Notes under the pieces: model-generated
Database searches by the model: none
What the model was told of the DNA's origin: nothing
The model's input: only the letters and a program-made list of their open reading frames with translations
Made by a program: the position numbers and the translations under genes
From: an uncultured Bacteroidaceae bacterium
Lineage (GTDB): Bacteria > Bacteroidota > Bacteroidia > Bacteroidales > SM23-62
Length of the DNA: 64,000 nucleotides
Assembly (NCBI GenBank): GCA_963777115.1
Contig: CAVZPP010000002.1
Span: 1,355,834-1,419,833 of the forward strand
Reading direction: 5' to 3'
Shown here: piece after piece, positions 5,551 through 35,567 of the stretch
Position numbering within the stretch: position 1 is the stretch's first letter
Layout of the letters: each line of letters begins with the position of its first letter

Positions 5551-5557
5551 TATGTGA

Positions 5558-16604: not shown

Positions 16605-17717
16605 TCAGGGGCCAGTAATATCCTCCCATCCCCTTGTCCGTATCTCCTCTCCCACTTCCTTAAATACTTTGACATCATGAGGATGGATTTTTCCTGATGG
16701 AAGAGGACCCGTATTCAATAAGACGTTTGCAGGTAGCTCCCTGGCATTTCTCAGCATTTCAAGAACATCCTCCTTGCTTCTATGCCTGCCATCATCCGCC
16801 TTCATATAGCCCCATCCCTTGGGCTGCATGGTATTGCATAATTCAAGGGGTTTATCCACAGCTCCCTTATAGTGCCTTTCAGGTGCATTAAAATCTTCAG
16901 TACCGATCAAACCCTGCTTATAGGATACCAGTACCTGTGATTGCTGTTCATGGATCATATCGTACAGCTCCTGGCATCTGAACAGGGAGAAATCACCGGA
17001 TTTCGGGGTAGATATCCCATCCAGCCATATTCCCGCAAGGGGAGAAAACATCTCAAGTAATTCCCTGACCTGATTACTCACGAATTCAATATAAATTTCC
17101 AGGTCATGCTCCTCCCCGTATTTATAGGAAGGATCGGGCGGATCGTAATCCGGACGTCCCCTTTTCCATTTATCATTATTCGGGGCATGCGGATGCTTCC
17201 AGTCCCGCCCGTGTGAATAATAAAAAAACAGTCCCAGTCCCTTTTTGTTACATTGCTCCGATAGCTCTGCCAGCAGGTCTCTTTTTGCAGGTGTGTTAGT
17301 GGATTTAAAATCTGAATATTTTGTATCCCATAAACAGAAACTGTCGTGGTGCTTGGTAGTAATATTAATATATTTCATTTCCGCCTCCAGGGCCATGTCC
17401 GTAATAAAATCCGCGTCAAACTCGGAGGCAGTAAATTGCTCGGTTAGCCTGGCATATTCCTGCACCGGGATCTTTTCCCTCAGCTGCACCCATTCATGTC
17501 TTCCCAGCAGGGAATATAAACCGTAATGCATGAATAATCCATAACGGGCATTTTTAAACCATTCAAGATTAGCCTTCCGGGGATTCTCCATCCAGGTGTC
17601 TTCATGGTCTTGCAGAAATGCAGGGGCTTTCCCACGCGATCCGGCAGCACATCCGGGGAATAAAATCATTCCTGTACCAGCTGCCAGGCTGGTATTTAGA
17701 AAATCTCTTCTTTTCAT
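16605..17717 (-). CDS. GH29 alpha-L-fucosidase with Tat-type signal and lipobox
   Basis: 370 aa. The N-terminus is MKRRDFLNTSLAAGTGMILFPGCAAG. GH29 core motifs are present: ARYGLFMHYGLYSLLGRHEW and MKYINITTKHHDSFCLWDTKYS. Confidence 0.85.
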   Translation of the reverse strand: MKRRDFLNTSLAAGTGMILFPGCAAGSRGKAPAFLQDHEDTWMENPRKANLEWFKNARYGLFMHYGLYSLLGRHEWVQLREKIPVQEYARLTEQFTASEFDADFITDMALEAEMKYINITTKHHDSFCLWDTKYSDFKSTNTPAKRDLLAELSEQCNKKGLGLFFYYSHGRDWKHPHAPNNDKWKRGRPDYDPPDPSYKYGEEHDLEIYIEFVSNQVRELLEMFSPLAGIWLDGISTPKSGDFSLFRCQELYDMIHEQQSQVLVSYKQGLIGTEDFNAPERHYKGAVDKPLELCNTMQPKGWGYMKADDGRHRSKEDVLEMLRNARELPANVLLNTGPLPSGKIHPHDVKVFKEVGEEIRTRGWEDITGP

Positions 17718-18791: not shown

Positions 18792-20315
18792 TTAAAAATT
18801 TCCAGCGTTGTCCGGTCTGTTTTCTTCAGTTACACCCAGGGATTTCATTCTTATCTTATATTCATCATTAGATTCTCCTGGAAGAAGGAAAACGTCACTG
18901 GGTGTGTGTTCGGATTGCATAATCTCGTCAATTTTGCTGTATATCTCAGGATACTTTTCAGAGAGATCCGTATCCTGTTCCGGATTATTTTCCAGATCAT
19001 ATATTTCCAGTTTTCCCTTTTTGTTTTTAAACCCATACCATTTGCCCATTCGAACAGCCTGTTCGGCCTTATATTCCCAGTAAAGAAATTCATGTTCTTT
19101 CTGCTCCTCAATTTGTCCCAACAAAGTAGGCAGAAAGGAAATCCCGTCTGTATTTCCCGGCGTTTCAACTCCAGCCAGGTCGGCAGCAGTAGGAAGGAAA
19201 TCCCAGAATGCCCATATATGATCACTGACTGTGCCTGCCTCAATAACACCTGGCCAGCGAGCCATGGCAGGAACATTAAATGCTCCGTCATAAATGTCGC
19301 CCTTACCGCCACGGGTTGGTGAAAAGCTGTTAAAGAAGATTTCATTGGGCGTTTCATCCTCCTTGGCATTTCCACCGGTATTCCCGTTATCAGAGGCAAA
19401 TATTACGAGTGTATTATTATCTATTTTCAGCTCCTTCAGTAGATTAAGCAGCTTGCCGACCTCATCATCCACACGGGTAACCATGGATGCATAGATCTTA
19501 TGAGAGAGAGGCCAGTCCAGGTCCTTATAAATATTCAGGTCCGGTGCGATATAGGAACCGTGAGGGGGTGTATAGGCCAGATACAGGAAGAAGGGATCCT
19601 CAGAATTATTACGAACGAATTCAAGAGATTTTTCACAGTATTCATCAAAGGCATATTTAGCCTTTGTATGATCTTCAATTCCCAGAGGGTGACAGATCCC
19701 ATTTTCATCATAGGGCTGATCTTCCTTGTAATTCTCAGGGAGGTGGTGAGTCCCGTTCTCAGGATAATATACCCTTTCCCCGTTATGGTATAAAAATTCT
19801 GGATAATGGCAATGTGCATGCCTCTGGTTCAGGTAACCATAAGATTCGTCGAAGCCCATTACCGGCGGTATTCCGTACTGATCATGGTTGGCGAGTCCCC
19901 ATTTACCAAACAAACCTGTTTTATACCCGGCTTCCTTCAGCAGCATGGCAACGGTATAGTCCCCTTCTCTCAGGGTTTCACGGAAGCCGTTGATCATATT
20001 ATCCCTTACCCTTGCATGTCCGGGATGCAAACCCTGCATGAGTGTAGACCGGGCAGGAGCACAAACTGCATTGCCTGCATAGGCCTGGGTAAATTTTATT
20101 CCCTCTGTAGCCAGGAGATCGATGTTTGGTGTTTTAATTTTTTCCTGTCCGTAGCAACCGATATCCCCGTAGCTCAGGTCATCCACCAGGATGAAAACAA
20201 TATTGGGTTGATCAGGATTGTCCTGTGCAGATTTTTTCTGGTTGGTTGATTTCCCGGTGCAGGCTGCCAGGCTGGCTAATAGTAATAATAATAAGAGATT
20301 ATTTAAATACTTCAT
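18792..20315 (-). CDS. S1-family (formylglycine-dependent) sulfatase, lipoprotein
   Basis: 507 aa with a signal peptide plus Cys (LAACTG). It has the metal-binding start FILVDDLSYGDIGCYG and the C-x-P-x-R formylglycine motif (AVCAPARSTLMQG). Confidence 0.9.
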   Translation of the reverse strand: MKYLNNLLLLLLLASLAACTGKSTNQKKSAQDNPDQPNIVFILVDDLSYGDIGCYGQEKIKTPNIDLLATEGIKFTQAYAGNAVCAPARSTLMQGLHPGHARVRDNMINGFRETLREGDYTVAMLLKEAGYKTGLFGKWGLANHDQYGIPPVMGFDESYGYLNQRHAHCHYPEFLYHNGERVYYPENGTHHLPENYKEDQPYDENGICHPLGIEDHTKAKYAFDEYCEKSLEFVRNNSEDPFFLYLAYTPPHGSYIAPDLNIYKDLDWPLSHKIYASMVTRVDDEVGKLLNLLKELKIDNNTLVIFASDNGNTGGNAKEDETPNEIFFNSFSPTRGGKGDIYDGAFNVPAMARWPGVIEAGTVSDHIWAFWDFLPTAADLAGVETPGNTDGISFLPTLLGQIEEQKEHEFLYWEYKAEQAVRMGKWYGFKNKKGKLEIYDLENNPEQDTDLSEKYPEIYSKIDEIMQSEHTPSDVFLLPGESNDEYKIRMKSLGVTEENRPDNAGNF

Positions 20316-20372: not shown

Positions 20373-21296
20373 TTATCTGAAAACAGCTATCAGCTCCTGG
20401 TGAAAACTATCCACCTTGACATAGGGATCACCTTTTCCGAGTGATTCAATGGGCAGGTAGCCCTTATAATCTGAGCCGGCAACTATATTCTTCAGTCTGG
20501 GGATATCAAGGGGTGTTCTCTCCTGGTTAATAAAGACATCCTCCTTTACCTGCCAGCTGATCGCGTGTTTAATCGTTTCTTCAATATCCACATATGGATC
20601 AGGGGTACGGTAAGATCCCACATCCAGCATGAGGCCTACCCATTCATGATTAACCATGGCCATAAACTTATTTACCTCTTCCGCTGTTTTCAGAAAATTA
20701 TTATGATTCTGGATCTCAAGAACCACTCCATAACTTTTGGCAACATCGGCACTTTTCTTAATTTCTTCAGCTGCCCAGCCAGCAATTTCATCCCAGGTAT
20801 AGTCTGTTGAAATTTTTGGTCCCTGAAGTATCCTTATTGCAGGCGCTCCAAGTTTCTGAGCCACTATAAGCCACTCACGGATAAATTCCTGGTCCTGTTC
20901 ACGTACGGCAGGATCCGGATTGCAAAAATCATTTCTTATCCCGGTCCCACAAATATGGATTCCCAGCTCAAATGCTCGCTTTTTGACGCTGTTAATGTAT
21001 TCATCACTTGGAGGTTCAGGATATCCGGGGAAGTAGTATCCCGTGATGTCTACCGCCTTAATTCCAATTTCAGAGCAATACTCCAATAGATCAAAAACGT
21101 CCATGCTTCCTTCCCTCAAATTGGCATTGAAAGAATAGGCATTTAAGGCAAATTTACTATTGACCTTAGGGGAAGGCTCTTGGCAATCAGAAGATTCGAC
21201 ATTGGTTTTACATGAAGTTCCAATTATTAGTGGAATAGTACAAGCTATTGCAAACAAAATTCTAGTACCGGGTTTGATTCGTTTTGATTTCATCAT
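20373..21296 (-). CDS. Secreted xylose-isomerase-like TIM-barrel protein (sugar phosphate isomerase/epimerase, AP_endonuc_2 fold)
   Basis: 307 aa with an N-terminal signal and lipobox-like IGTSCK. TIM-barrel pattern: FALNAYSF, IKAVDITGYYFPGYP, GAPAIRILQG, VVLEIQNHNNF, GLMLDVGSY. Confidence 0.75.
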   Translation of the reverse strand: MMKSKRIKPGTRILFAIACTIPLIIGTSCKTNVESSDCQEPSPKVNSKFALNAYSFNANLREGSMDVFDLLEYCSEIGIKAVDITGYYFPGYPEPPSDEYINSVKKRAFELGIHICGTGIRNDFCNPDPAVREQDQEFIREWLIVAQKLGAPAIRILQGPKISTDYTWDEIAGWAAEEIKKSADVAKSYGVVLEIQNHNNFLKTAEEVNKFMAMVNHEWVGLMLDVGSYRTPDPYVDIEETIKHAISWQVKEDVFINQERTPLDIPRLKNIVAGSDYKGYLPIESLGKGDPYVKVDSFHQELIAVFR

Positions 21297-21351
21297 TGTT
21301 TATTTGGGTTTATATTCCAGATTATTAGTTTATTACCAGTAACAGGTTCAA

Positions 21352-22698
21352 TTACAAGTCAGATATTTTCTCAATGTATTCAGCAGATCCGTCCCTCAGC
21401 CAGCCATCTAGTTCTGCTACCTCTTTCAATTGTTGTCCTCTCATGCGAGGGATTTTCAGGTATCGGCAGTTAAGATCCGGCAGGCCTGTCATGTCTCCCC
21501 ATAGTTTTTCAAACTGGATCACCGGAAAAATATCCTCCTGCCCTTTGCCCCATCTTTTTTTCACATCCTTAACGGTGATGTATGTAGGCATTCGCCGGGA
21601 CATATCCCGGATGGCATTGATTACTTTTTCCGGCTGCGCAAGTTCATCCCGTGTGATTCCGAAACAATCCAGTATCTGCTGAATATCCAGCCAGAAAGTA
21701 TTTGAATTATAGTAGGTCAGATCAAATTCAATCTTCTCATCCGGCAATGCGAGTCCCTCTATAATCCTCACCCTCCCATCAATTTTTGCCAGTCCCCCTC
21801 CCCGATCATTCAGCTTCCGGCCAATGACCTCGGCGGACAATGCCGCTTTTGTGCCGAGATGGTATCCGAATACTTCCGGATCCGCATTAGCTCCAAGGGT
21901 ATCGACATTATGAACCAGCAGATGTTCCAGGTCCGGATGTTCTTTAAGCATCTTTTCCAGCGTACCGTTCAGCAACATATTGGGTATCTCGTACCAATGT
22001 CCAACCGGATGGATGCATTGCTGTGGAATATTATCCCGGTAGTCTTCCGCTTCTCCCGTCTCTTTTGCCCAGTTGATAAGGGCATTATGAAGACTGTCTT
22101 TCACCTTCTGTTCCTGTTCATCCAGTATTTGTTGTGGAAGTACTTCCCAGAGATAACGAAGCTCTCTCTCGGTAGGAATAAGGCGGAGACCGATGGATTT
22201 ACCCTGGGAAAGGTAAAGGGGACCAGTATGTCCGAAGTTTTTTGAATATGAGAGGAATTCCCCAATTGCATCATGGGTCAGAAAACTTGTAGTAATCACA
22301 TGGGGAATTTCCCGACCGGCCATTTTAGAAATGGCCCTGTTTTTGGCCAGGTGCAATTCCAGAAAGCTCCTGTGTTTTCCTGAAAACCTGGCAAAGGGAT
22401 GCAATGCCTTTACCACGCCTGCTCCCTGGGTCCATCTACTGCCTGCTCCCCCTGCAAGAGTTACAATGCCAAGCTTTCCACTTTGAAGGGCCTTCAGGCC
22501 AGCCTGGTGGTTGGACTTTGAAGGCTGCTCAAGCAGATCATCAATTTCCTGCACAGATACATCCTTTATGATACTGCTGACAGGTAACCTGTTTTGGGAA
22601 AGGCCAATTCGACCTGATTTCAGATCCGATTTAACCTGCTGATGTATTTCCGTGATCGAATCCATAGCTAGAGAGAAGGTCATCGAGGGAGAGATCAC
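21352..22698 (-). CDS. UDPGP-family sugar-1-phosphate nucleotidylyltransferase (UDP-sugar pyrophosphorylase-like)
   Basis: 448 aa. The nucleotide-binding loop GIVTLAGGAGSRW resembles the LAGGQGTRLG loop of UAP/USP-type enzymes, with VHNVDTLGA downstream. The start is uncertain: GTG at 22698 or ATG at 22683. Confidence 0.6.
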   Translation of the reverse strand: MISPSMTFSLAMDSITEIHQQVKSDLKSGRIGLSQNRLPVSSIIKDVSVQEIDDLLEQPSKSNHQAGLKALQSGKLGIVTLAGGAGSRWTQGAGVVKALHPFARFSGKHRSFLELHLAKNRAISKMAGREIPHVITTSFLTHDAIGEFLSYSKNFGHTGPLYLSQGKSIGLRLIPTERELRYLWEVLPQQILDEQEQKVKDSLHNALINWAKETGEAEDYRDNIPQQCIHPVGHWYEIPNMLLNGTLEKMLKEHPDLEHLLVHNVDTLGANADPEVFGYHLGTKAALSAEVIGRKLNDRGGGLAKIDGRVRIIEGLALPDEKIEFDLTYYNSNTFWLDIQQILDCFGITRDELAQPEKVINAIRDMSRRMPTYITVKDVKKRWGKGQEDIFPVIQFEKLWGDMTGLPDLNCRYLKIPRMRGQQLKEVAELDGWLRDGSAEYIEKISDL

Positions 22699-22802
22699 TC
22701 TCAGATTCTTTGTCTGCAGCAGGAATCATACGTTCATACAAACCTGAAACGAAACTGCCGTAGGCCTTATTCTCTCGGGTTTGACGGCCCAGGTTCTGCA
22801 AT

Positions 22803-24701
22803 TCACTTCGTTGTCCCAGCTGTTAGGCTCTGGATTTCTTTCTTCAGCATGGCAGGGGACATGAGAATATAATATCCCTGTGGCATCATGGCCTCACTGC
22901 CCTCAAGAACCTGGCAAACAGATCCTTTTCCATTGATACTGAAATCATATACTACCGGCTCCATGGCAAATGGAATGGCCTTTTCGAAAACCCTTTTAGT
23001 TTCAGTCAGGATTTCCTGTAGTCTGCTCTGTGCCTGGACTTTTACAAGCGGATCGAAGATGAATCCCATTCCACCTCCTGACATTCCTCCCATCATCCAG
23101 AAACCCCAGAACCGGTCTTTGAACTCTTTCTTAACCTTTTGTATAAGTGATTCAGTGTATATATTTGTAGTCCATGGTATTATATCACGAATTGGACCGG
23201 TAAAATTCCGGTCAGTCAAGCCTCCGATGGCGGAAATATCTCCTTCTTTCAGTTTATCGACAACTTCATCAAAGAACTTAATGGCTTTCTTCCTGGCCTT
23301 CCATTCCGTATCAGAGCGAAGCAGGTATTTTTCGGTTACCATCTCAAGAACAGGACCTACATCCTGGGCCATGCCTCCATGTACTATAACCAGGCTGTCA
23401 TGCAGTTTTTGCCGGGTAGCTTTGCTTACCTCATCTTCCTCAAGGATAGTATGGTCAGGCAACAGCCTTCCCTTGCTTTTACCGTATTCAGGGTCACCTT
23501 CCTTGGCCTGCACACCCCTGATCAACTTCACCCCGGGCCAGAGTCCACCGCTATCCTGCCATCCTCCTCCGGATCCACCAAGCCATTCACCCAGTATACT
23601 CCGGGCAGCCACCAGCCGTCTTTCCTCACTTTCTAAGGGTCCTGAGAGGGAAACGGTCTGTCCGGTTGCCCTCATGCAAACTGATATCAGGGAAGCGAGC
23701 AGGTTGGTTGATACAGCCAGTCTTGACCCCTTAGGGATATTATTTACATGGCTGACCAGCTCAATTCCTTTGCCTGGTCCAAGTATTTTCGATAGCAGAT
23801 CTGAAAGTGGGACACCCGATCCCTCCATTCCCGGGGGAATAATACCGCTTGCAATGACCGCAGCTTTTAGCAGTCCAAGGTAATCTTTGGCAAAATCAAA
23901 GACATCATCCAGGCTGGAAATGCTGGTGCTGGCGCCAAGATCTACACTGCAGAGCTTCAGTACAGGTTCATCGATAACCCTGAAATAAGTCCTGATGGGA
24001 GGTTCTGGCCTGGGTGAGCTTCCCTCCTTTCGGATTTCCAGATTGACGGAAATATTGAGTACCTGTGCACCTTCCGGGAAATCCATTCCCAGAAAGAAAA
24101 TATCGCTCCAGCCGCTATGGGTGATGTCCATCCGGACAGGAGTGGATTCAAAAAGGACTGGTGTTAGCCCGCTATCGGCATCATGCACGAGTAATTCCTT
24201 CCTGATCTGAAGCGGATGGTCAAAGGGATGTCCGCAGCGGAACATCCACTGGTTTCCCAGGGTATTGCGGACGCTGTACCGGACCTGGTCTGCAAGGGTC
24301 TGGAATGCTAATCTGTGATAGGCTTCTGCCAGGCCGCTGGAGACACCTTCATTGGGTCCCTTTTCTTTCTGGATCCGGGTAAAAATATCAATGGCCTGTT
24401 CAAACCGCCTCTTCAGCATATGATCATATGCCTCAAAGGGTATCCATCCCTCTAAACTGATCCCTGGACGGAACGAAAGATAGAAACGGTGGATGGCATA
24501 TAGGAAAAACAGCGCCCGGACCCGGTGATAAAGGTTTTTATTGGTTTTTCTGAATTCGTCAAGCTCTTCGCATGCGGCAAGAAGTTCTTCTGTGCTGGCT
24601 GTTTTGCAGAAATTGTCAAGGGACTGATCCTTAATCCCTGGTTTTTCTGATGTAATGATTTCTATGAGTTTTCCCATTTCCGGCCTGTCCTTCTTATTCA
24701 T
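22803..24701 (-). CDS. Fucokinase-type GHMP sugar kinase with an unrecognised ~300-aa N-terminal domain
   Basis: 632 aa. The C-terminal half has a degenerate GHMP motif II ([21 protein letters not shown]). It also has the GWQD box typical of fucokinase/HddA-type GHMP kinases ([16 protein letters not shown]) and motif III ([15 protein letters not shown]). I cannot assign residues 1 to about 300 to any family. Its start overlaps the stop of the upstream gene by 8 nt. Confidence 0.55.
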
Positions 24702-25536
24702 CTTTCATTGCAAAAAACTCAACCAGTTCACTCAGTACCCGGTCCCTCTCCTTCCCGTGAAGGGCCAAAGCCAACTGCGCCTTAAGCAAACCGTACTTCT
24801 CTCCCATATCATACCGCAGATCATTCCGCTCAAGAGCAAGGTATTGTTCTTTTTTTGCCAGTAAGTTTAAAGCACCTGATAAATCCACCTTTCCTCCTTT
24901 GGCAGCCTTCAATCTCTGGTCAAGAGTCTTCATTACCGTATGTGTCAGTACATGCATGCCGAAGAAACAGAGATAATGGCCGGCTCGGAGTCCGGGTACA
25001 ATAAGTTTTTGCTCAGCTTCTGTCGGTGTGGGCTTCTCAATCACCCTCTCAATCTGGTAGGCATTCTTAATCCCCTGGAATCGTTTTCCGCCAACTACCC
25101 CGAAATTAGGAATCAGGCTTTCCCGTGTCGGCTGAACAGTGGAAACTGCGCATTCATGCTTTTCCGCAAAATCTACCAGGTGCTTTGCACTGGATTCACC
25201 GGAACGGTTAACATAGAGATGGTCTCCCACCAGGTGGAGAAAAGGATCTTTTCCTGTAAAGGGATGTGCACAGTGAAGAGCGTGACCGTATCCAAGGGGT
25301 TCAGCCTGGGGTAAAAAAGTAACTACATGGGAATGGTTTCCTATTACCTGTCCATAAGGATCTTCATCTCCCGGCTGCACAATAATGCAAATATCCTGGA
25401 TGCCTGCGGCAAGTACTTCTTCAACAAGGAGTTCAAGAAATGATCTTTTATCACCGTTTCGGTCGACCAGTGTTTGCAAGGCGAGTTTACGCTGATTTGG
25501 GCCAGCAGCTGTAATCACTGCTTTACGTATTTCCAT
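24694..25536 (-). CDS. GalU-like NTP_transferase-fold protein with a degenerate nucleotide-binding loop
   Basis: 280 aa. Length and layout fit UTP-glucose-1-phosphate uridylyltransferase ([29 protein letters not shown]). The canonical G-x-G-T-R-x-L-P-x-T-K loop reads [13 protein letters not shown]. Confidence 0.55.
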
Positions 25537-25660
25537 AGGGCTAGAATTAGACCCTTAATTTCATCATTTTTTCATTATCGGAAAAATAATAATGGAAGTA
25601 TATACATTCTCAATGGGGATGACTAAATAATCGGAACATATCGACCTGCTATACTTACTT

Positions 25661-27859
25661 TTACAACGCTATATATATCTCAGCAAAACCATCCAGCTGT
25701 TTGATGGTAAAAGAAGTTTTACCCTCCTCCCTGATCCCTTTAATTTCATATCCATCTTTTCCTGGCTGGTATACCATTCCCTTTGCGGGAAGTTGTTTCG
25801 CAACGGAAACTGATATGTCCGGGAGAGAAATTATCTGATCCAGGGGAATTTTCCCGGTTCCGTTGACGAACTGGATTAAAATACCTTTTTCAGTTTCATG
25901 AAGGGTAATCTCAACTGTGGAGGGTGCGTTTGTCGTCAAAATTGGAGAGTTTGAGCTTTCATTGAAAATCATCTTATACAATAATTCAGTATAATCCGGA
26001 TGGTCGTAACGAAACATCATCTCACCCAGTCCATTGCCAAAGTATACCAGATCCCCTTTTCCTATTGGTTTGGACCATAGAACTGCATTGTCTCCTTTAA
26101 CAATTTTACCAAGATCTTCCGGAGTCGCCCTGTAAACATTATCCAGACAGGCATTCAACCAAACTTTGCAATCATCCGTAATTTCTGTCAGCCTGTAATT
26201 CAGGGAAGAATTACGGGTCGCTAATCCCAGTGGACCCTTTAAAATATCCTGCTCGGCATAGGAATCGGTGGAAGGGACTGCATAGTTGCCTCTTCCATTT
26301 TCAGTTGTCCAGGTTTCCCCGCACATTGATTGAAACAAATCCGGTATTCTGGTAAATCCAGTTGCATTGAATGAATTGTCCATCATCACCAAACGTCCGC
26401 CTTGTTCCATAAAATGATATAATTTCTCTATTTCCTGGTCCTTAAAATAAACCATGGAAGGAATCACAATCACATTATATTTCCTTAAATCATAGTCCTC
26501 CAAAATATGATCATACAATACATTAAACTGTATGTGTTTACCGGCCATTGCCCGATATAAGCCAAGAAATTCATTTCTCAATCCCAGGTTGGCTTCCTCA
26601 CCCATCATTATTACATCTTCAATCCCCATTTTGGGATATACCAGGGCTACCTGGTTCATTTTTTCAGGATTAAGGGCATATTCTTCCCGGGTTTTCATCA
26701 ATGAATATATTGAAGAAACCATCTCTTTTGAACGTGTATCCTGAACATTTTGTATAATTCCGTAAGTAGGAATTTTGAGTCCGGCGTTATGAGCGATCGC
26801 CTGATAACAATAAAACTTAAATTCTTCAGAAGGTTTCTGGAAGTCGGAATAATTTAATCCGGCGGACTGTACCTTCATATTTATTATCGGGTAAAAATCA
26901 GGCATGGTTGCATGTGCCATTTCAGCTGAAAGACCTATCCAGTAACGAAAACTGTATAAGTCCTCACTCATTCTACCTGTTGTAAGCAGAAGATTTGTAA
27001 ATGCATCGGATAACCGATAATTATCAAATGCCTTGCGATAAGCCCATCCCGGTGATTCAGCTCCAGCTATTTCAGCCATTAGAAGGATGTTCTCATTTTT
27101 TTCATGAAGGATCTTTCTATAATTAAGGATCATTTCTTCAACAACACTTTGTCTCCAGGAGTTAAATTCATATACCTTATCCGGATCAGAGTAAATATCT
27201 CCCTGCAATAAGGACCCAAATTTATCCATTGAGACTTTGTCATAACTTATGCCTTCAAAACCACTGGCATTCAGGTGAATGCCGGCAATCTCATAATTAT
27301 CAATCAGCTCCTGCAGAACCTTATGGGCAAAATCTGCGTTTTGATAACCTCCTGTAGGTGTTGTGGCATAACGTGACTGGGACCCTCTGTGATTTTTAAA
27401 TGAACCATCTTTGTTCATGTGAAACCATCCTGGATAGAGTTCTGATAATTCTGTGGATGCACCTGCAAAATCAAAGCGGGCGATAATTTTCAGATTCTGC
27501 TTCTTTGCTTCTTTACAGATTTCTCCAAAGAGATCACGACCATCCAAAAGCGGATTTGGATTATGATATTTAATTTTTGAGGGGTAGTAAGAGTAAATTC
27601 CTCCTGCATTAACAACAATGGCTTCTGCATTGATAGCCACACAATTTTCAATAAATTTAGCAGCATCGAAGCCTTCAACCTCCCAGTTTCTCATATTGGG
27701 ATGGTAAATCCGAAGCAAATTATTTGAGTACCATACATTGTCTTTCTCCGACTGCCCGGATGAATTGAGCATAAGAAATGAAAAGCTCAAAATCAGAAAC
27801 CATCGAAATGAATCTGAACCTGAACCTGGACCTGAAAAAAGAGAATTCGATCTTGACAT
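25661..27859 (-). CDS. Putative secreted glycoside hydrolase (TIM-barrel N-terminal domain plus GH42-type trimerisation/GATase-like middle domain)
   Basis: 732 aa with a signal peptide. The N-terminal region (AINAEAIVVNAGGIYSYYPSKIKYH..., LKIIARFDF) resembles uncharacterised GH-like TIM barrels. The middle (VALVYPK..., YNVIVIPSMVYF, GGRLVMMD) resembles the beta-galactosidase trimerisation domain. The family is unverified. Confidence 0.35.
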   Translation of the reverse strand: MSRSNSLFSGPGSGSDSFRWFLILSFSFLMLNSSGQSEKDNVWYSNNLLRIYHPNMRNWEVEGFDAAKFIENCVAINAEAIVVNAGGIYSYYPSKIKYHNPNPLLDGRDLFGEICKEAKKQNLKIIARFDFAGASTELSELYPGWFHMNKDGSFKNHRGSQSRYATTPTGGYQNADFAHKVLQELIDNYEIAGIHLNASGFEGISYDKVSMDKFGSLLQGDIYSDPDKVYEFNSWRQSVVEEMILNYRKILHEKNENILLMAEIAGAESPGWAYRKAFDNYRLSDAFTNLLLTTGRMSEDLYSFRYWIGLSAEMAHATMPDFYPIINMKVQSAGLNYSDFQKPSEEFKFYCYQAIAHNAGLKIPTYGIIQNVQDTRSKEMVSSIYSLMKTREEYALNPEKMNQVALVYPKMGIEDVIMMGEEANLGLRNEFLGLYRAMAGKHIQFNVLYDHILEDYDLRKYNVIVIPSMVYFKDQEIEKLYHFMEQGGRLVMMDNSFNATGFTRIPDLFQSMCGETWTTENGRGNYAVPSTDSYAEQDILKGPLGLATRNSSLNYRLTEITDDCKVWLNACLDNVYRATPEDLGKIVKGDNAVLWSKPIGKGDLVYFGNGLGEMMFRYDHPDYTELLYKMIFNESSNSPILTTNAPSTVEITLHETEKGILIQFVNGTGKIPLDQIISLPDISVSVAKQLPAKGMVYQPGKDGYEIKGIREEGKTSFTIKQLDGFAEIYIAL

Positions 27860-27891: not shown

Positions 27892-29994
27892 TTATAATCC
27901 CAAATAATGGGGTTCCTGGTCGTAAGGCTCAATTTCACCGCTTACTACCTCATAGAGTCTCTCATGTGTCTCTCGGGCTGCTTCGATGAGAGGTTGGTAA
28001 CCCTTATGGCATACATTGTAAAACCCGATATTGTAATTTTCCCCGTCATTACGGCCCATCGCAGGATTATCATAGAAACGATAATAATGGGACCCAACGC
28101 AATATGTTTGTGCAGCAGCCCATTCCTGATAAACCCTGAATGCTTTCCCGCGCTCCTCCTGAGTTCTGACCTGTTGGTTGGCTAATCCTGGCAGTCCGGC
28201 ATCCAATGCTCCAAAATGCCATTCACCGATTAGGAGAGGTTTGTCCAGGTTCTCTGCTATTTTTCCATATTTATCTCCAACTTTCCTCGAATAAACATTG
28301 AAACTAATAACATCCATATACTTCATGCTTTTTAATGCCCATTCTTTTGGAGTTCCTGCAAAGCGGGTCCCCAGATTGATATGATTTTTATCGACTTTTT
28401 TACATTCAGAAGTGATGGTACTGTATAGATAATCTGCAAGCAGAATTGAGAAATCTTTTAAATCTTGTCTGGCTTGTTCGGATAGTTTCTCTGTCCAGAT
28501 TCCCGTTGTTATATCTTCAAATGTTTTATCCGTTTTCCAGGCTTCAGAAAAAATCGTTTGATTATTGTATTTACTCTTTAGAAATTCCGCCAGTTCCTCA
28601 CGTGTATAACATGTTTCAGTATTGTAGAGCATCCCTTCCGCAGGAGTCATATTCAGGCTTGAGCGAGCCCAGGTAGCTTCATTTTGTATAAAATATCCAA
28701 TCATCGCTTTGGAATTTGCCGTAACAGCTAATTCCTGAACACTTTGTATTACATCTTTACGGAAATTGGGATGATATACATCCGGGAAATCCCTGAAAAT
28801 AGAGGGTGTATTGTCCAGGGAAATCCGTATTCGCTTGGTGTATGGAAATTGATTTCTTTCAGCAAGATCCCAGTCAGAGCTGTTGCCAAAGCTGTTAAAT
28901 CCTGCCTTTTTTAAGGATCCCATGGCTATTTTATCCCAATTATCTCTCCATGACTCAGCTCCAAAAGCACGAATAAAATTTGCAATCAGAAAATTAATTG
29001 AGTTCTCTCTATGATAATAAATTCCATCCCAGGCATCTGCATACTCACCTGTTTTCTCCGGTAGCCAGGCATAAGCCTTTTCAAGATAATCAACCGGAGA
29101 GGGAGGTGGTTCTCCAACACAGTTGATCCCCGATGACCAATATCCATAACCATCAGGATCCACCAACCACCATCTTTTTCCATCAAATTGAGTTCTGAAA
29201 AATCCTGTGCTATTAAATTTTATATTTTTCCAGCCTCCCCATTTTGAATAATTTTCCGGTAAGGTCGAGTTTTCTGATTCCCTGAGTTGTACCAATAAAT
29301 GATTTCTTGAATCCTCATTACTGGATAATTTATTGGCAAAGGAATGCAATGTAAACTGACCCAGAGAGTCTATTAGGACGCCTTTTGGATAAGAAGGATT
29401 TTCCAATATCGGTGGTTCCGATACGGAAACATTCACAGGAGTCTGGCACCATCTGAGGGGAGAGATTGGCTCGCCTATTCGAATAACAAGAATTTCCATA
29501 CGATCCACTTTAGATAGATCCACCCTGTCGCCCCGGGCTGAAGGTTTTATCAAACCACCTTCCCGGGTGAAGAATAATCGGTTCTGATTAACAGCTTCCA
29601 GGGGTATCCGAAGTCGGGCTGTAACGGATGGCAACAATCCATAGGTATAGTAAAAAACCGGGGATCCTCCCTCTTCAATTAATCGCAAATGAAATGTATG
29701 CTTTGCCATGTGCAATCCTTCAAAAAGAAGATCAAAGCTCAGATAATTATAATCAGCCAGCAATCCTTTTGGGAAACGATATATAAGTCCATCTCCTTTT
29801 TCCTGGGCCTTATACCAGGTATTTTCAGAAAAATAATCTGTCCCATTTGTCTTTTCAAGTTTTCCGATAAACTCTTCCGGAAGCAATTGAATTGTATCCG
29901 ATCCGGCAGAATTATGTTTCTGTGACTTATCCGGTGTACAGGAAAAAACGAAAAGCAACAGAAAAGGTAGTATTGTTTTCATCATTGAATTCAT
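27892..29994 (-). CDS. Putative glycoside hydrolase lipoprotein (C-terminal (beta/alpha)8 domain, GH42/GH50-like)
   Basis: 700 aa with a signal peptide plus Cys (VFSCTPD). The C-terminal segment PLLIGEWHFGALDAGLPG...RGKAFRVYQ...VGSHYYRFYDNPAMGRNDGENYNIGFY resembles the catalytic-domain end of GH50/GH42-type enzymes as I recall them. Unverified. Confidence 0.35.
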   Translation of the reverse strand: MNSMMKTILPFLLLFVFSCTPDKSQKHNSAGSDTIQLLPEEFIGKLEKTNGTDYFSENTWYKAQEKGDGLIYRFPKGLLADYNYLSFDLLFEGLHMAKHTFHLRLIEEGGSPVFYYTYGLLPSVTARLRIPLEAVNQNRLFFTREGGLIKPSARGDRVDLSKVDRMEILVIRIGEPISPLRWCQTPVNVSVSEPPILENPSYPKGVLIDSLGQFTLHSFANKLSSNEDSRNHLLVQLRESENSTLPENYSKWGGWKNIKFNSTGFFRTQFDGKRWWLVDPDGYGYWSSGINCVGEPPPSPVDYLEKAYAWLPEKTGEYADAWDGIYYHRENSINFLIANFIRAFGAESWRDNWDKIAMGSLKKAGFNSFGNSSDWDLAERNQFPYTKRIRISLDNTPSIFRDFPDVYHPNFRKDVIQSVQELAVTANSKAMIGYFIQNEATWARSSLNMTPAEGMLYNTETCYTREELAEFLKSKYNNQTIFSEAWKTDKTFEDITTGIWTEKLSEQARQDLKDFSILLADYLYSTITSECKKVDKNHINLGTRFAGTPKEWALKSMKYMDVISFNVYSRKVGDKYGKIAENLDKPLLIGEWHFGALDAGLPGLANQQVRTQEERGKAFRVYQEWAAAQTYCVGSHYYRFYDNPAMGRNDGENYNIGFYNVCHKGYQPLIEAARETHERLYEVVSGEIEPYDQEPHYLGL

Positions 29995-30035: not shown

Positions 30036-31112
30036 TTATGATTGCAGATCTTTTAATACATCCACCACCGCATCACCGCATTCCCTGGTATTTGCTTTGC
30101 CTCCCATATCCGGGGTATGGGCTATCCTTTCTTTCAGGACTATTTCAATTGCCTTCATGATTGAATCAGCCGCTTCCGGGTGTCCCAGGTGCTCCATCAT
30201 CATGGCGGCTGACCAGATGGTTGCAATGGGATTGGCAATCTTTTTTCCGGCAATATCCGGAGCTGAACCATGGACCGGTTCAAACATTGAAGGATATTCC
30301 CGTTCAGGATTAATATTGGCTGAAGCTGCAATTCCGATGGTGCCTGCAATGGCCGGTGCCAGGTCGGATAAAATATCCCCGAAAAGATTTGAACCAACCA
30401 CCACATCATACCAATCGGGGTGAAGCACAAAATAGGCTGTTAAAATATCAATGTGGTACTGGTCTGTTCGTATATCCGGATATTCCTTCTTAATTTCTGC
30501 AAAACGTTCATCCCAGAAGGGCATGGTATGAACAATTCCATTGGATTTGGTGGCGGAGGTAACATGCTTGTCAGGGCGTGTTCCGGCCAGTTCAAATGCA
30601 TACCGCAATACCCTGTCAACTCCTTTTCGGGTAAAAATACTCTGCTGGCTGACCACTTCATTTTCTGTCCCCTGGAAGATCCTCCCCCCGATTTCTGAAT
30701 ACTCACCTTCATTATTTTCCCTGACAATCATCAGGTCGATATCTTCTGCTTTTCTTCCGGCCAGGGGACAGGGAATGCCCTCAAATAATCGCACCGGGCG
30801 TAAATTGATATATTGATGAAATGCCCTGCGGATTGGGAATTAACAAACCCCACAAAGAAATATGATCAGGGACTCCTGGGAAACCTAACGGCCCCCAAAA
30901 AGATCGCATCTTTTGGCTGCAAGTTGCTCCAATCCATCATCAGGCATCATTTTTCCTGTTCTGGCATAATGTTCACAGCTCCAGTCAAACTCCTCCCAGG
31001 AAAAGGAGATATCAAACCTTGAACCTATGGTTTCCAGGATTTTGATTCCTTCGGGAATTACCTCTTTTCCGATTCCATCCCCCGGGATCACTGAAATTTT
31101 ATATTCCTTCAT
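30036..31112 (-). pseudogene. Tartrate dehydrogenase/decarboxylase or D-malate dehydrogenase (isocitrate/isopropylmalate dehydrogenase family), disrupted by three 1-nt insertions
   Basis: ORF 30885..31112 (MKEYKISVIPGDGIGKEV...) and ORF 30036..30794 (...RENNEGEYS, TSATKSNG, SNLFGDILSDL, EPVHGSAPDIAGKKIANP) are in the same frame. Together they match E. coli DmlA/YeaU from memory. The 90 nt between them encode DAIFLGAVGFPGVPDHISLWGLLIPIRRAFHQYINLRPVRLFEG only if three single bases are skipped. Confidence 0.85.
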
Positions 31113-31127: not shown

Positions 31128-32631
31128 TTATAACCATTCAGGCATAACACCTGGAACAATATCAAAATATTTCCCCCCGAACAGCCACATCATTATTACT
31201 ACCACAAGAATGCCAATCATATTCAACAGGAACCCGGTTCTGATCATGGTAGCAATCCGGATTTTGTTTGTGCCGAATACTATGGCATTTGGAGGGGTAG
31301 CCGTTGGCAGCATGAAGGCAAGTGATGATGCCAGGGTGGCTGGAATCATAAACAATATTGGATTATTCCCGCTGGATACTGCAAGTGCTGCAAATACGGG
31401 CAGCAACATTTGGGTGGAGGCAACATTGGAGGTTAACTCGGTCAGGAATGACATTAGTGTTACAATGGCCAGGAGGATGAATAAAGGATGGATGGACTGG
31501 GTCCATGAAAGTTGTTCTCCAAACCAGAGGGCGAGGCCACTGGACTGAAATCCTTGGGCGAGTGCAAATCCCCCGCCGAACAGCAACACAATATTCCAGG
31601 GCAATTTCTGGGCTGTTTTCCAATCCATAATCCTGCCGGATTTTTCTGATTTTGTTGGTATAATAAACAGAATAATTGCAATAAGCATTGCCACTGTCCC
31701 ATCATTAATATATTCCGGATATCCAAACAGGGTAGACCAGCCGGGCAATCGGAAATTTTCGAATTGTATGCCAGCTCTGAATATCCATAGGAGGGCAAGA
31801 CTTGCAAATAATAAGAAAACAATTTTTTCCTCGAAACTTGCCTTACCAAGCGCCTGGTACTCGTTTCTGAAGTGTTCCTTATCAATACCAGTCCATTTCT
31901 CCTTGGGGCGGTACATGAAATATACCACCAGCCAGATGGCCGCAAACATTATCAGTGTAATAGGCAGCGCAAAAAAGAACCAGTCTGCAAAGGATACCTC
32001 CGGAGCATTGGGATACAACAATGTCAGGATTTTAGGAAAAACCAGGTTAGTCGGTGTACCCACAAGGGTAGACATCCCGCCGACAGATGCACTATATGCA
32101 ATGGCAAGGAAAAGTCCTGTGGCATATTTTGACATATTCTTTCCTTTCGACGGTTTCTTCCAGGCTTACAATGATTGACATGACAATCGGGATCATCATC
32201 ATTGTAGTGGCGGTATTCGATATCCACATGGACAGAAATGCTGTTGCCAGCATAAAACCAAACAATATCCTACCCGGACTCACCCCTATTACCATTAGGA
32301 TTTTTAATGCTATCCTTTTATGCAGATTCCATTTCTCCATAGCCAGGGCCATGATAAAACCACCCAGAAAAATAAAGATGATATGGTTAATGTAAGTGCT
32401 TGAAACTTCCTTTCCGTTCAGGACTCCAAGCATTGGAAAAAGCACCAACGGCAAAAGAGCGGTGACGGAAAGCGGAATTGCCTCTGAAACCCACCAAATA
32501 GCCATCAACATGGTTACTGCAAATGCCCGTGTGACTTCCGGATGCCCTGGTTTCAGGTCGGTAAAAAGCAGAATAAAAAGAAATACGATGATTCCCAGGA
32601 AGAGTCCGATAAATTTTGATGAAATTTTCAA
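31128..32631 (-). pseudogene. DASS-family (SLC13-like) sodium-coupled di/tricarboxylate or sulfate symporter, frameshifted
   Basis: ORF 32092..32631 is the N-terminal half, with the hairpin motif SNTATTMMMIP. ORF 31128..32135 is the C-terminal half (KYATGLFLAIAYSASVGG, SNVASTQMLLP). They overlap in different frames, and the junction lies in an A-rich stretch around 32125-32150. Confidence 0.8.
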
Positions 32632-34199: not shown

Positions 34200-35567
34200 T
34201 TACTTCAGAAAAATCTCAATAACAGGTACCTCAACATCAGGCTTGTTTACAGGCATGTTCAGGTTGATGTCATTATCTCCCATTTTATCCGATGACCTGT
34301 GTCCACGTGGTCTGGTGATCCTGATTTCGGAAGCATCATGAAGGAATTGTGCATATTTAACTTTATCCTTGTAATCTTTTAAAAGAAAGTTTTGCAAGGG
34401 ATAATCCAGCAGATGGATATACAGCCTGTTCGATTCAGGATTGTAGGTAAGGAGGGTATTGGCAGGGACCTGGAAGTCCTCCGGAGCCTGTGTGCAGTTG
34501 TAGATGGAACGGTCATTTAACTTCATCCACTCCCCCATTCCCGCAAGCGCATTATCTGCTCTTTTATCAAATGTTCCACGGGCAGTGGGACCCACATTCA
34601 ACAGAAGATTCCCTCCTTTGGAAACGGATTCAATGAGCAGTACCAGTAATTGCTTATTATCTTTCCAGGTAAATTCATCCCGGTAATACCCCCAGGATCC
34701 GGAAAAAGTCTGGCAGGTTTCCCATGGAATTTTTTTACCGTCTACCTCGGGCCAGTTGTTAACTTTAAATTGCTCTGGAGTCGTAAAATCCCATCCTCCC
34801 TGGTAATCTTTCAAGTCCGCCCTGTCATTAATGATTATTTCAGGTTGAATCTCTCTGACCATCTTCAATAGCTCAACGGATCCCCAGTCATCCATGCCTT
34901 TCCCATTTTCACCAGGAAAAGAATAATCCAGCCAGAGTATATCAATTTTGCCGTATTTAGTCAGTATCTCCTTAACCTGGTTTTTCAGGTATTCACGGTA
35001 TACTGCCATATCCCTGTCCTTATTCAATTTATCATACTCTTTCTTTGTGCTGACTCGCTGGGGATGCCTGCTGTCAATGGTATAGTCCGGGTGATGCCAG
35101 TCAATAAGGGAATAATAAAAACCAACACCCAGGCCTTCGGCACGGAAGGCCTCAACCCATTCCTTTATGATATCCTTTTTATAGGGAGTATTGGTAACAT
35201 TGTAATCCGTATACTCTGATTCGAACATGCAGAAACCCTCATGGTGTTTGGAGGTAATGACTGCATATTTCATGCCTGCAGCCTTTGCCTTCTTAGCCCA
35301 ATCAGCAGGGGCAAATAAATCCGGGTTAAAAACATCAAAGTACTTCTGGTAATCAGAATCATTCATCCTTTCCCGGTTTTTTACCCATTCATGCCTGCCG
35401 GCCTGGGCGTACAATCCCCAGTGAATAAACATACCAAAGCGGGCATCGGTCCACCAGGACAGTCGTTCAGTTTTTTGTTCTTCCGTTTCATCCCAGATCT
35501 TGTTCTGGGCATTTGACAGGTTTGCAAGCAGAGCGCTTACAAGTAGGGTTAGAATCAGCTTTTTCAT
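34200..35567 (-). CDS. GH29 alpha-L-fucosidase, secreted
   Basis: 455 aa with a signal peptide. Motifs: ARFGMFIHWGLYAQAGRHEW, MKYAVITSKHHEGFCMFES, GFYYSLIDWHHPDY. Confidence 0.85.
   Translation of the reverse strand: MKKLILTLLVSALLANLSNAQNKIWDETEEQKTERLSWWTDARFGMFIHWGLYAQAGRHEWVKNRERMNDSDYQKYFDVFNPDLFAPADWAKKAKAAGMKYAVITSKHHEGFCMFESEYTDYNVTNTPYKKDIIKEWVEAFRAEGLGVGFYYSLIDWHHPDYTIDSRHPQRVSTKKEYDKLNKDRDMAVYREYLKNQVKEILTKYGKIDILWLDYSFPGENGKGMDDWGSVELLKMVREIQPEIIINDRADLKDYQGGWDFTTPEQFKVNNWPEVDGKKIPWETCQTFSGSWGYYRDEFTWKDNKQLLVLLIESVSKGGNLLLNVGPTARGTFDKRADNALAGMGEWMKLNDRSIYNCTQAPEDFQVPANTLLTYNPESNRLYIHLLDYPLQNFLLKDYKDKVKYAQFLHDASEIRITRPRGHRSSDKMGDNDINLNMPVNKPDVEVPVIEIFLK

Follow-up and report, generated by a model that had tools for sequence, protein, structure and literature searches.

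A conserved two-gene module of a GalU-like enzyme and a probable sugar kinase-UDPGP fusion, read as three open reading frames in an uncultured Bacteroidaceae genome

We examined three adjacent minus-strand open reading frames (ORFs) in a 64-kb stretch of DNA (the window) from an uncultured Bacteroidaceae bacterium, which an earlier note had described as a three-gene operon with separate kinase and UDPGP genes. All three ORFs are present where that note had placed them, but, judging from their homologs, the second and third are pieces of one gene, and the real unit is a widespread two-gene module consisting of a GalU-like enzyme and an ~1,106-residue kinase/UDPGP fusion. With somewhat better than even confidence, we favor the view that this is a self-contained module, its second gene (gene 2) probably broken in the window by assembly insertions, that would convert a sugar to its 1-phosphate and then to a UDP-sugar by a route like that of Bacteroides fragilis FKP.

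Pfam recognized PF00483 in the first ORF and PF01704 in the third, and no family at E ≤ 0.01 in the 632-aa middle ORF, GHMP_kinases_N/C and Fucokinase included. Gene 2 has more than 4,500 homologs, most of them ~1,102 to 1,106 aa long with PF01704, which is the only family in the precomputed Pfam annotation of the homologs. The kinase and UDPGP parts form a single polypeptide in all 81 loci fetched from outside the window's clade, representing at least nine phyla, and gene 2 is likewise intact and undivided in the close relative L084. In tblastn searches, the fused homologs matched the window in frame 3, then frame 1, and then frame 2, and a DNA alignment with the intact L084 gene contained exactly two 1-nt gaps, the window being the longer sequence at both. 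Deleting one base per site opened the frame over 1,115 codons, counted from position 24701, and restored a 1,107-aa ORF. The first shift leads to a TGA at 22803 to 22805, four codons on, and the segment between the two sites still aligns as a homolog with the linker region of the fusions (residues 612 to 674 of P0002; 52% identity by tblastn). The apparently separate "kinase" and "UDPGP" genes thus result from two extra bases in the linker, and the view that the system is split over three proteins gives way to one in which two single-base insertions divide what is one polypeptide elsewhere.

Table 1. Features of the module in the window
Feature	Position	Strand	Remarks
GalU-like ORF	24694..25536	-	280 aa
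Middle (kinase) ORF	22803..24701	-	632 aa
UDPGP ORF	21352..22698	-	448 aa; GTG start
Gene 2 (predicted fusion)	21352..24677	-	~1,107 aa: helical N-domain, GHMP kinase, linker, UDPGP
Helical N-terminal domain	24237..24677	-	ORF residues ~9-155
GHMP kinase domain	22902..24158	-	ORF residues ~182-600; fucokinase/heptokinase clade
Frameshift site 1	22814..22820	-	One extra nt; window AGCTGGGAC versus A-CAGGGGC in L084
Linker	22655..22813	-	Readable solely in the intermediate frame; contains SGLYERMIPAADKE, then LDDLLSSYGFD
Frameshift site 2	22650..22654	-	One extra nt; window GATCACGG versus GACC-CGG in L084
UDPGP-type pyrophosphorylase domain	21352..22649	-	PF01704

Translational coupling had been proposed from an 8-nt overlap (ATGAATAA) between the first two ORFs. 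The overlap exists in the DNA, but it is probably not the true start of gene 2. L083, the closest relative, with a partner protein 90% identical to that in the window, has no ATG at the overlap position, and the N termini of the homologs (MGKLIEII) correspond to a Met codon at window position 24677, 16 nt past the partner stop codon. As the overlap is not kept in L083, coupling by this means was not upheld.

In 75 of the 76 loci with enough upstream sequence, the fused gene is immediately preceded by the GalU-like gene, so that the three parts seen in the window are kept together elsewhere as a conserved unit. Neither outcome named in the earlier note as speaking against its reading, a known non-kinase family for the middle ORF or a trio not kept together elsewhere, was observed. 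This unit occurs in at least nine bacterial phyla and also in oxymonad eukaryotes; we found no literature on the gene 2 family. When flanks of up to 8 kb were clustered, no further conserved neighbor emerged, no other family being present in more than 4 of the 81 loci, and conserved co-localization with SusC/D, glycoside hydrolases, or sulfatases was not found at these loci. The PUL-type surroundings reported for the window are real (GH29 fucosidases, SusC/D, a sulfatase, and a hybrid two-component regulator flank the genes), and in the complete genome L001 the pair sits amid housekeeping genes. Since no neighbor besides the GalU-like gene is conserved, the occurrence of the module within a PUL is incidental, and the flanking PUL genes do not belong to the system; a functional link to the PUL or its fucosidases, as suggested earlier, was not borne out among the 81 loci.

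The identification of the middle ORF as a fucokinase/heptokinase-type GHMP kinase is borne out by its fold and its catalytic residues. Its AF2 model (pLDDT 89.4, pTM 0.90) has the two-domain GHMP fold, and Foldseek matched it to the FKP kinase (9iip; E = 6e-19, TMt 0.82), WcbL (TMt 0.81), and galactokinases (E about 1e-11). By sequence, phmmer matched it to FKP in the PDB (E = 2e-12, 18 to 20% identity) and detected no match to WcbL or HddA; the NCBIfam model PRK13412 gave 77 bits against a cutoff of 721, and only its positions 609 to 952, the kinase part, matched. Motif I (PxRxD...GGW(T/S)D) is present, and the GGGWQD box and motif III (GxGGG), which the earlier note had read in the middle ORF, are both present and invariant. 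FKP residues R592, W599, D601, E751, Q761, D762, and S719, whose roles have been described (PMC11982464), correspond to R190, W198, D200, E372, Q382, D383, and S331, all of them invariant in 53 sequences; with the exception of T602, every experimentally supported catalytic or sugar-binding residue of FKP is invariant in the family. The degeneracy reported for motif II is also real and invariant across the family: the glycine loop departs from PxGSGLGSS in that FKP G715, G717, and T718 are replaced by R327, A329, and V330, and S719, which binds the metal, is retained (S331). Given this non-canonical phosphate loop, with R in place of G715 and A in place of G717, the use of ATP by the kinase is not assured.

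The N terminus, once put at ~300 unrecognizable residues, really comprises about 155 to 180 aa, since the GHMP fold and motif I begin at residue ~182. In the AF2 model it consists of helices (residues 11 to 155, pLDDT about 90), and it has no Pfam or NCBIfam match. Foldseek aligned 576 columns to full-length FKP and 439 to the FKP kinase part alone, which suggests that this region overlaps the helical linker of FKP.

The C-terminal domain scored 59.4 bits against PF01704 (cutoff 22) and matched PDB UGPases at E = 1e-10; Foldseek searches with its AF2 model (pLDDT 75.5) gave UAP and UGP nearly equal scores (E about 1e-17, TM about 0.55, 14 to 19% identity). The nucleotide loop LAGGAGSRWT...K97 and the lysine of a C-terminal PRxRGQQLK motif (PRMRGQQLK here), which by inspection we take to be the catalytic loop and lysine of UAP/UGP, are invariant or nearly so in the family alignment, and the sugar motif GHGD reads GHWY. 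The domain is deep-branching and, in these comparisons, not nearer any characterized subfamily (UGP, UAP/AGX, or USP).

The kinase-plus-pyrophosphorylase logic proposed in the earlier note is thus supported by the GHMP fold and the catalytic residues. The kinase domain would use an NTP to phosphorylate a free monosaccharide at its anomeric hydroxyl, and the tethered UDPGP domain would combine the resulting sugar-1-phosphate with UTP to give a UDP-sugar. The whole would amount to FKP-like salvage on one polypeptide, in the opposite domain order and with a pyrophosphorylase of the eukaryote-type fold; a liberated sugar might conceivably be diverted into surface glycans. B. fragilis FKP (PDB 5YYS, 9IIT, and 9IIP) likewise combines a GHMP anomeric kinase and an NDP-sugar pyrophosphorylase in one polypeptide, its kinase domain is the best match in sequence (E about 1e-12) as well as in fold, and the two share the catalytic Arg, Glu, Asp, and Ser and the sugar-contacting Trp, Asp, and Gln. 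Besides the low identity and subthreshold PRK13412 score given above, the module differs from FKP in that the kinase comes first and is followed by a UDPGP (PF01704) fold, whereas FKP has an N-terminal GFPP domain, in its extra ~150-aa helical N-domain and altered glycine loop, in its obligate GalU-like partner gene, and in its nucleotide, which is probably UTP rather than GTP. Zebrafish DrGKUP, a glucuronokinase/putative UDP-GlcA pyrophosphorylase, also serves UDP-sugar salvage through the fusion of a GHMP sugar-1-kinase with a pyrophosphorylase of the uridylyl type (PMC3938481). In DrGKUP, however, a short bacterial-type nucleotidyltransferase domain is N-terminal, whereas in the module the short GalU-type enzyme is separate and the fused C-terminal pyrophosphorylase is of the long, eukaryote-type UDPGP kind.

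The partner protein aligned to the GalU model TIGR01099 over aa 71 to 253 only (96 bits; cutoff 327), scored 45 bits against PF00483, and matched GalU/YngB in the PDB at E = 4e-21. It shares with GalU and GalF the GalU fold family and the uridine/sugar motifs QxxPxGxGHA (QxxPLGxGHA), GD, EKP, and YDxG (RYDMG), which are conserved in 79 family members. It differs from them in lacking an ~25-aa insertion past strand 2 and in its N-terminal loop, where the family consensus GxxQRxLPLQT...DRDG replaces GxGTRxLPxTK (GLGTRFLPATK in GalU). The partner belongs to a dedicated subfamily of GalU-like putative uridylyltransferases and is the mate of the fused gene, and the change in its N-terminal catalytic loop means that it is perhaps not a simple pyrophosphorylase.

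One speculative role for the partner would be the reversible conversion of UDP-glucose and PPi to glucose-1-phosphate and UTP, in which case the three activities together could make up an Isselbacher-type route that needs no GalT and in which UTP and PPi are recycled. In the sugar-1-kinase/UDP-sugar pyrophosphorylase (USP) salvage and the Isselbacher pathway of plants and trypanosomatids, a GHMP kinase of the anomeric type likewise supplies a pyrophosphorylase of the UDPGP family, and a further UDP-glucose pyrophosphorylase rounds off a way of using galactose that is independent of GalT (PMC6329318). Those enzymes are separate, unlinked, and eukaryotic, whereas the module is bacterial, with the kinase and UDPGP fused and a prokaryote-type GalU-like enzyme apparently co-transcribed; no epimerase or glycosyltransferase to complete such a route is conserved nearby in the 81 loci. 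Only tentatively do we entertain the larger proposal that the variant-loop kinase, the UDPGP domain, and the modified GalU-like enzyme form one complex in an unrecognized bacterial nucleotide-sugar pathway, serving either as a GalT replacement or as a 1,6-bisphosphate route. The first version would take the place of the Leloir pathway's HIT-type GalT, swapping uridylyl between UDP-glucose and the newly phosphorylated sugar, with UTP and PPi recycled; the second would yield a UDP-sugar through a 1,6-bisphosphate with no phosphomutase. Given its spread over at least nine bacterial phyla and oxymonad eukaryotes, such a pathway, if real, would be a major means of activating sugars that has so far been overlooked.

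Giant relatives (P0144, P0155, and P0271) carry, in the same polypeptide, a sugar kinase of the ROK type and a domain of the inositol monophosphatase family, and a GalU-like domain is not detectable in them, a combination that fits a different route. These fusions are a few metagenomic proteins.

HddA/WcbL and HddC are the heptose-7-phosphate kinase and heptose-1-phosphate guanylyltransferase of GDP-heptose synthesis. They too pair a GWQD-type GHMP kinase with a GalU-fold nucleotidyltransferase, and WcbL is a top structural match to our kinase domain; the phmmer result, by contrast, sets them apart, the UDPGP domain has no counterpart there, and no GmhA or GmhB gene was found among the neighbors of the 81 loci. 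A heptokinase-like enzyme would phosphorylate a terminally phosphorylated sugar to a sugar-1,6-bisphosphate, from which a phosphatase would release sugar-1-phosphate for UDPGP, giving a UDP-hexose independently of a phosphomutase. WcbL being structurally as close as the FKP kinase is consistent with this scheme, the ROK and inositol-monophosphatase-family fusions would supply the extra steps that it requires, and the conserved glycine-loop Arg could hold the additional phosphate. We nevertheless think it unlikely, as the bacterial module has no conserved phosphatase or ROK gene beside it, the fusions are known from few proteins, and the GalU-like partner is left without a role.

The two extra bases in gene 2 are likeliest to be assembly insertion errors, since at least three more genes in the window are broken (Iso_dh, a DASS transporter, and the hybrid two-component regulator [HTCS]) and all seven breaks are +1 shifts, two of them within ~170 nt in gene 2 and three within ~100 nt in Iso_dh. 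Genuine frameshifts, reflecting fission at the interdomain linker into separate kinase and UDPGP proteins or a recent pseudogene, would fit the facts that both breaks fall in the linker and leave both catalytic domains intact, that the second half has a GTG/ATG-containing frame, and that neither site is a clean long homopolymer. L085, a short-read contig from a related population, is also interrupted near the domain boundary, by a TAA stop at codon ~598, and in L082 the gene is likewise broken near residue 600. Yet L082 contains many further split genes, and it was retrieved with the 632-aa ORF as query, which favored fragments no shorter than 620 aa; other relatives in which the gene is broken have different break positions. 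The out-of-frame linker still encodes conserved protein, and all 81 loci outside the clade are intact. Taking these points with the clustered single-base insertions in the window, we consider genuine frameshifts quite improbable and retain the assembly explanation.

GalF is a paralogous regulator of GalU, the UTP-glucose-1-phosphate uridylyltransferase, and by analogy the GHMP-like domain, the partner, or both might be non-catalytic sensors controlling a single active UDPGP, a reading to which the non-canonical glycine loop, the missing Pfam GHMP match, and the partner's divergent loop and score far under the GalU cutoff lend themselves, but which we judge very improbable in view of the near-complete invariance of the FKP catalytic and sugar-binding residues, the retention in the partner of a loop Arg and the EKP lysine, and the fact that the deviant loops of both proteins are invariant rather than decayed.

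The three minus-strand ORFs that the earlier note read as a three-gene kinase/nucleotidyltransferase operon are present in the window (see the table), as are the motifs it quoted from them. To judge from the sequence, however, the "kinase" and "UDPGP" ORFs are pieces of one gene. Used as a query, the 632-aa ORF retrieved more than 4,500 relatives (62 to 76% identity) from Bacteroidota, Chloroflexota, Ignavibacteria, Calditrichota, and Methylomirabilota, the great majority of them 1,102 to 1,106 aa long with a C-terminal PF01704 domain. In tblastn comparisons, three fused homologs matched the window in three different frames, over residues 1 to ~620, ~612 to 674, and ~670 to 1100. Read against the homologous protein P0002, the junctions run from LTAG to QRSEL and from GFD to (H/T)EIHQQ, so that two +1 frame changes are needed. 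With a base removed at each of two sites, near 22815 and near 22650, a single frame stays open for 1,115 codons, starting with the ATG at 24701; counted from the homologs' Met, the restored frame is 1,107 aa, the family length. Furthermore, a short-read contig reached via the partner, the GalU-like nucleotidyltransferase encoded upstream (77% identical), carries an intact 1,116-aa fused gene (L084), and its DNA alignment with the window has exactly two single-nucleotide gaps (AGCTGGG versus A-CAGGG and GATCACGG versus GACC-CGG). The stand-alone atypical kinase was therefore an appearance produced by two single-base insertions in a fused gene, and the finding as first put, with three genes, a PUL link, and a separate kinase, is in part an artefact. 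For genome scans there is a caution here, in that two inserted bases sufficed to mimic such an operon.

Features of the window in and around the kinase-UDPGP module
Feature	Position	Strand	Remark
SusC/SusD	3625-8743		PUL-like region
Hybrid two-component regulator (HTCS)	10817-~14935	-	1,171-aa ORF; apparently broken (inspection only)
GH29 fucosidase	16605-17717		PUL-like region
Sulfatase	18792-20315		PUL-like region
Xylose-isomerase-like TIM-barrel protein	20373-21296	-	lipoprotein-type signal sequence; directly downstream of module
"UDPGP" ORF	21352-22698	-	448 aa; GTG start
"Kinase" ORF	22803-24701	-	632 aa
GalU-like partner	24694-25536	-	280 aa
GHL6/GH42M-like putative glycosidase	25661-27859	-	732 aa; weak fucosidase-family match only; PUL component
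Lipoprotein-like protein	27892-29994	-	700 aa; no Pfam/NCBIfam match; PUL component
Iso_dh (isocitrate/isopropylmalate-dehydrogenase-family) gene	30036-31112	-	broken; 75-aa + 252-aa ORFs
DASS transporter (Na_sulph_symp/CitMHS)	31128-32631	-	split; 179-aa + 335-aa ORFs
GH29 fucosidase	34200-35567		PUL-like region

The breaks in the window are most likely assembly errors. All seven that we mapped are single extra bases, they are clustered, and at least five lie outside the fused gene. The two Iso_dh pieces correspond to model positions 1 to 69 and 112 to 348 and are rejoined by three successive +1 shifts, all inside ~100 nt; the two DASS ORFs match the Pfam model in complementary stretches and are separated by one +1 shift; and, by inspection, the signal peptide and first propeller repeats of the HTCS apparently lie in another frame (+1), upstream of 14332. 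No decay is seen in the sequence downstream of any break, and homologs still align with the 57-codon linker that the fused gene has in its intermediate frame. A methylation-related long-read basecalling artefact may have been the source of the insertions: GATC occurs at or near the breaks at ~22654 (the second site in the fused gene), ~30895 (site A in Iso_dh), and ~14320 (HTCS), where the exact insertion points are ambiguous. No Dam motif common to all break sites was found; other breaks are in short homopolymers (AAAA, CCC, GGG).

A real, very recent fission or pseudogene seems improbable to us. It would draw on the short-read contig L085 (2980-5436), the partner protein of which is identical to that of L084 (1154-4504), so that the two are likely to be from the same population; the fused gene is intact in L084, but in L085 a TAA nonsense codon interrupts it at codon ~598, near where the kinase domain borders on the linker. 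This is, however, the only unbiased case, it is not significant, and coverage of L085 is about 3×. Programmed recoding at two sites was ruled out, since none of the 81 loci fetched from outside this clade has the gene broken and the breaks of other broken relatives are elsewhere, as in the locus on contig_3058 (256 kb) that encodes P0003. The same contig has EPSP synthase, DUF4290, and ABC-2 permease genes each split in two, a signature of error-prone assembly like that of the window.

The earlier note had taken an 8-nt overlap (ATGAATAA) as a sign of translational coupling. The overlap is physically there, but it probably does not mark the real start: in the closest relative (L083, whose partner is 90% identical), the GAT of the window is replaced by GAC, which leaves no ATG at this point. 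Because the fused gene of L083 is called from MGKLIEII, with which P0001, the 624-aa NCBI protein of the window's own locus, also begins, the start is likely to be at 24677, 16 nt past the partner stop codon. Elsewhere in the family the two genes overlap by 1 to 4 nt; tight coupling is thus a family trait, and this particular 8-nt overlap apparently is not.

A one-genome-per-species scan found the fused gene in at least 566 species, the best 80 loci of which fall in Bacteroidota, Chloroflexota, Verrucomicrobiota, Planctomycetota, Acidobacteriota, Armatimonadota, Ignavibacteria, Rhodothermales, Myxococcota, and Moduliflexus. In 76 of 81 loci, the same strand carries a partner homolog (45 to 71% identity, for the most part more than 51%) upstream of the fused gene, with a gap of less than 300 nt in 71 of these. 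Four of the five exceptions have 291 nt or less of upstream sequence and the fifth (L022) has 983 nt; once loci short of upstream sequence are set aside, the partner is directly upstream in 75 of 76, and the survey that the note proposed for a conserved unit did find one. Clustering of the flanking ORFs of the 81 loci gave no further family in more than 4 loci. The surroundings in the window are genuinely PUL-like (SusC/SusD, HTCS, GH29 fucosidases, sulfatase), but this clustering ruled out PUL membership of the module; the true unit appears to be two genes in an incidental setting. The neighbors of L083 differ from those in the window, and a complete 4.9-Mb genome has the pair flanked by a gene for a large secreted protein on one side and by genes for thioredoxin and amino-acid biosynthesis on the other. 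A scan of 21000 to 26000 for sigma-70 promoters and terminators gave nothing above shuffled expectation, Bacteroidota promoters being outside its coverage. Adjacency of the TIM-barrel gene to the module is not kept in other loci; an exported location is unusual for that family. Directly upstream of the module, the lipoprotein-like protein and the putative glycosidase adjoin each other, both uncharacterised.

The 632-aa ORF had no Pfam match, and in NCBIfam it matched only the kinase part of PRK13412 (FKP) over residues 182 to 569 (77 bits against a cutoff of 721). AlphaFold2, run on this part with a 53-sequence alignment, gave a model (pLDDT 89.4, pTM 0.90) with an all-helical region at residues ~10 to 155 and a GHMP fold from ~182 to ~600. 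Foldseek against the PDB returned full-length FKP (9iit; E value, 6e-20; 576 columns), the FKP kinase (9iip; TMt 0.82), the heptokinase WcbL (TMt 0.81), and then galactokinases. Because the alignment with full-length FKP is the longer, the model suggests that the helical N-domain overlays the helical linker of FKP. An unrecognised N-terminal region therefore exists, as the note had it, but it spans ~155 to 180 residues and not ~300.

According to the FKP structure paper (PMC11982464), D762 serves as general base, E751 is indispensable, and R592 acts with Mg2+ to stabilise the leaving group; the sugar is contacted by W599, D601, T602, and Q761, and the triphosphate is bound by a glycine loop (residues 712 to 720) in which S719 contacts the metal. 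By HMMER alignment, D762, R592, E751, and W599 correspond to D383, R190, E372, and W198, and D601, T602, Q761, and S719 to D200, I201, Q382, and S331; all are identical save for the Thr-to-Ile change, and all are invariant in the 53 sequences. The deviant motif II of the earlier note is real: the glycine loop reads KGSRLAVST in place of AGSGLGTSS, and this deviation is itself invariant in the 53 sequences, which makes it a family feature and not decay.

The UDPGP half passes Pfam PF01704 and retains LAGGxGSRW...K and the lysine of a C-terminal PRxRGQQLK, which we take, from inspection, to be the UAP/UGP nucleotide loop and catalytic lysine; in place of GHGD, the usual sugar motif, it has GHWY. 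Its model (pLDDT 75.5) points to a deep branch of the PF01704 pyrophosphorylases, since UDP-GlcNAc and UDP-Glc pyrophosphorylase structures match it equally (TM about 0.55, 14 to 19% identity). The partner is one of a large, dedicated subfamily whose members are 280 to 285 aa long, and it has a Pfam NTP_transferase match and a GalU match in NCBIfam over residues 71 to 253 only (96 bits against a cutoff of 327). It keeps the QxxPLGYGHA, EKP, and RYDxGxKYG motifs of GalU, lacks a GalU insertion of ~25 residues, and has AAGxxQRxLPLQTLxDRDG for AAGLGTRFLPATKAxPKEMLP. With the binding motifs kept and the N-terminal loop replaced, its uridine and sugar-phosphate half looks GalU-like and its β/γ-phosphate (or PPi) loop remodelled.

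Established here are the folds, the conserved catalytic residues of the kinase and UDPGP domains, their fusion, and the obligate pairing with the partner. In all probability, the family acts in the manner of FKP-type salvage enzymes: the kinase domain would turn a free sugar into a sugar-1-phosphate and the UDPGP domain would turn this into a UDP-sugar, on one polypeptide, with the domain order reversed and another pyrophosphorylase fold. More speculatively, the module could be an Isselbacher-type route, to our knowledge the sole pathway logic that needs an anomeric kinase and two uridylyl-type pyrophosphorylases. In that route, one enzyme yields UDP-X, and reversal of the UDP-glucose pyrophosphorylase reaction frees Glc-1-P and regenerates UTP (PMC6329318). 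With its PPi loop remodelled, the partner might even favor direct uridylyl exchange, but no epimerase is linked to the module, which weakens the Isselbacher-type reading. That the pair forms a complex for a hitherto unrecognised GalT-independent or mutase-independent UDP-sugar pathway is a possibility that we hold as doubtful. There is also a hint of a heptokinase-like bisphosphate route: WcbL is structurally as close as the FKP kinase, and giant relatives from metagenomic contigs (P0144, 2,318 aa; P0155, 2,939 aa; P0271, 3,096 aa) have a ROK sugar-kinase domain joined to the kinase-UDPGP core, P0144 carrying an inositol-monophosphatase-family domain as well. These giants have long stretches without Pfam assignment, and BLASTP found no GalU-like domain hidden in the giants; no extra Pfam domains were found in five odd-length representatives (P0151, P0206, P0237, P0142, and P0199).

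FKP-like bifunctional kinase/pyrophosphorylases are workhorses of nucleotide-sugar making, and we know of few natural architectures for them. Despite a partly artefactual first report, the gene family behind it, as yet uncharacterised, deserves study. It spans more than 4,500 protein clusters, with 55 to 65% identity between phyla; its carriers are abundant environmental heterotrophs (Bacteroidota, Chloroflexota, Verrucomicrobiota, Acidobacteriota, and Planctomycetota); about 630 residues of the fused protein have no Pfam model; and the only existing annotation is "UTP--glucose-1-phosphate uridylyltransferase." No study describing it turned up in literature searches. Among characterised systems, the nearest are FKP, zebrafish DrGKUP (PMC3938481), the plant/trypanosomatid sugar-1-kinase/USP salvage enzymes, and HddA/HddC. 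The family falls below the curated thresholds of the FKP, GalU, and Pfam GHMP models and lacks the canonical motif II, so that it should not be filed under any of these. Finding out which sugar it uses, and why a second uridylyltransferase is obligate, could bring to light a new route of salvage or of entry into catabolism, and the family could yield a one-protein catalyst for UDP-sugar synthesis.

The oxymonad eukaryote Blattamonas nauphoetae has an annotated homolog of 1,292 aa (P0157, KAK2962578.1), and Omnitrophota have divergent versions of 1,158 to 1,343 aa; together these suggest transfer between domains of life.
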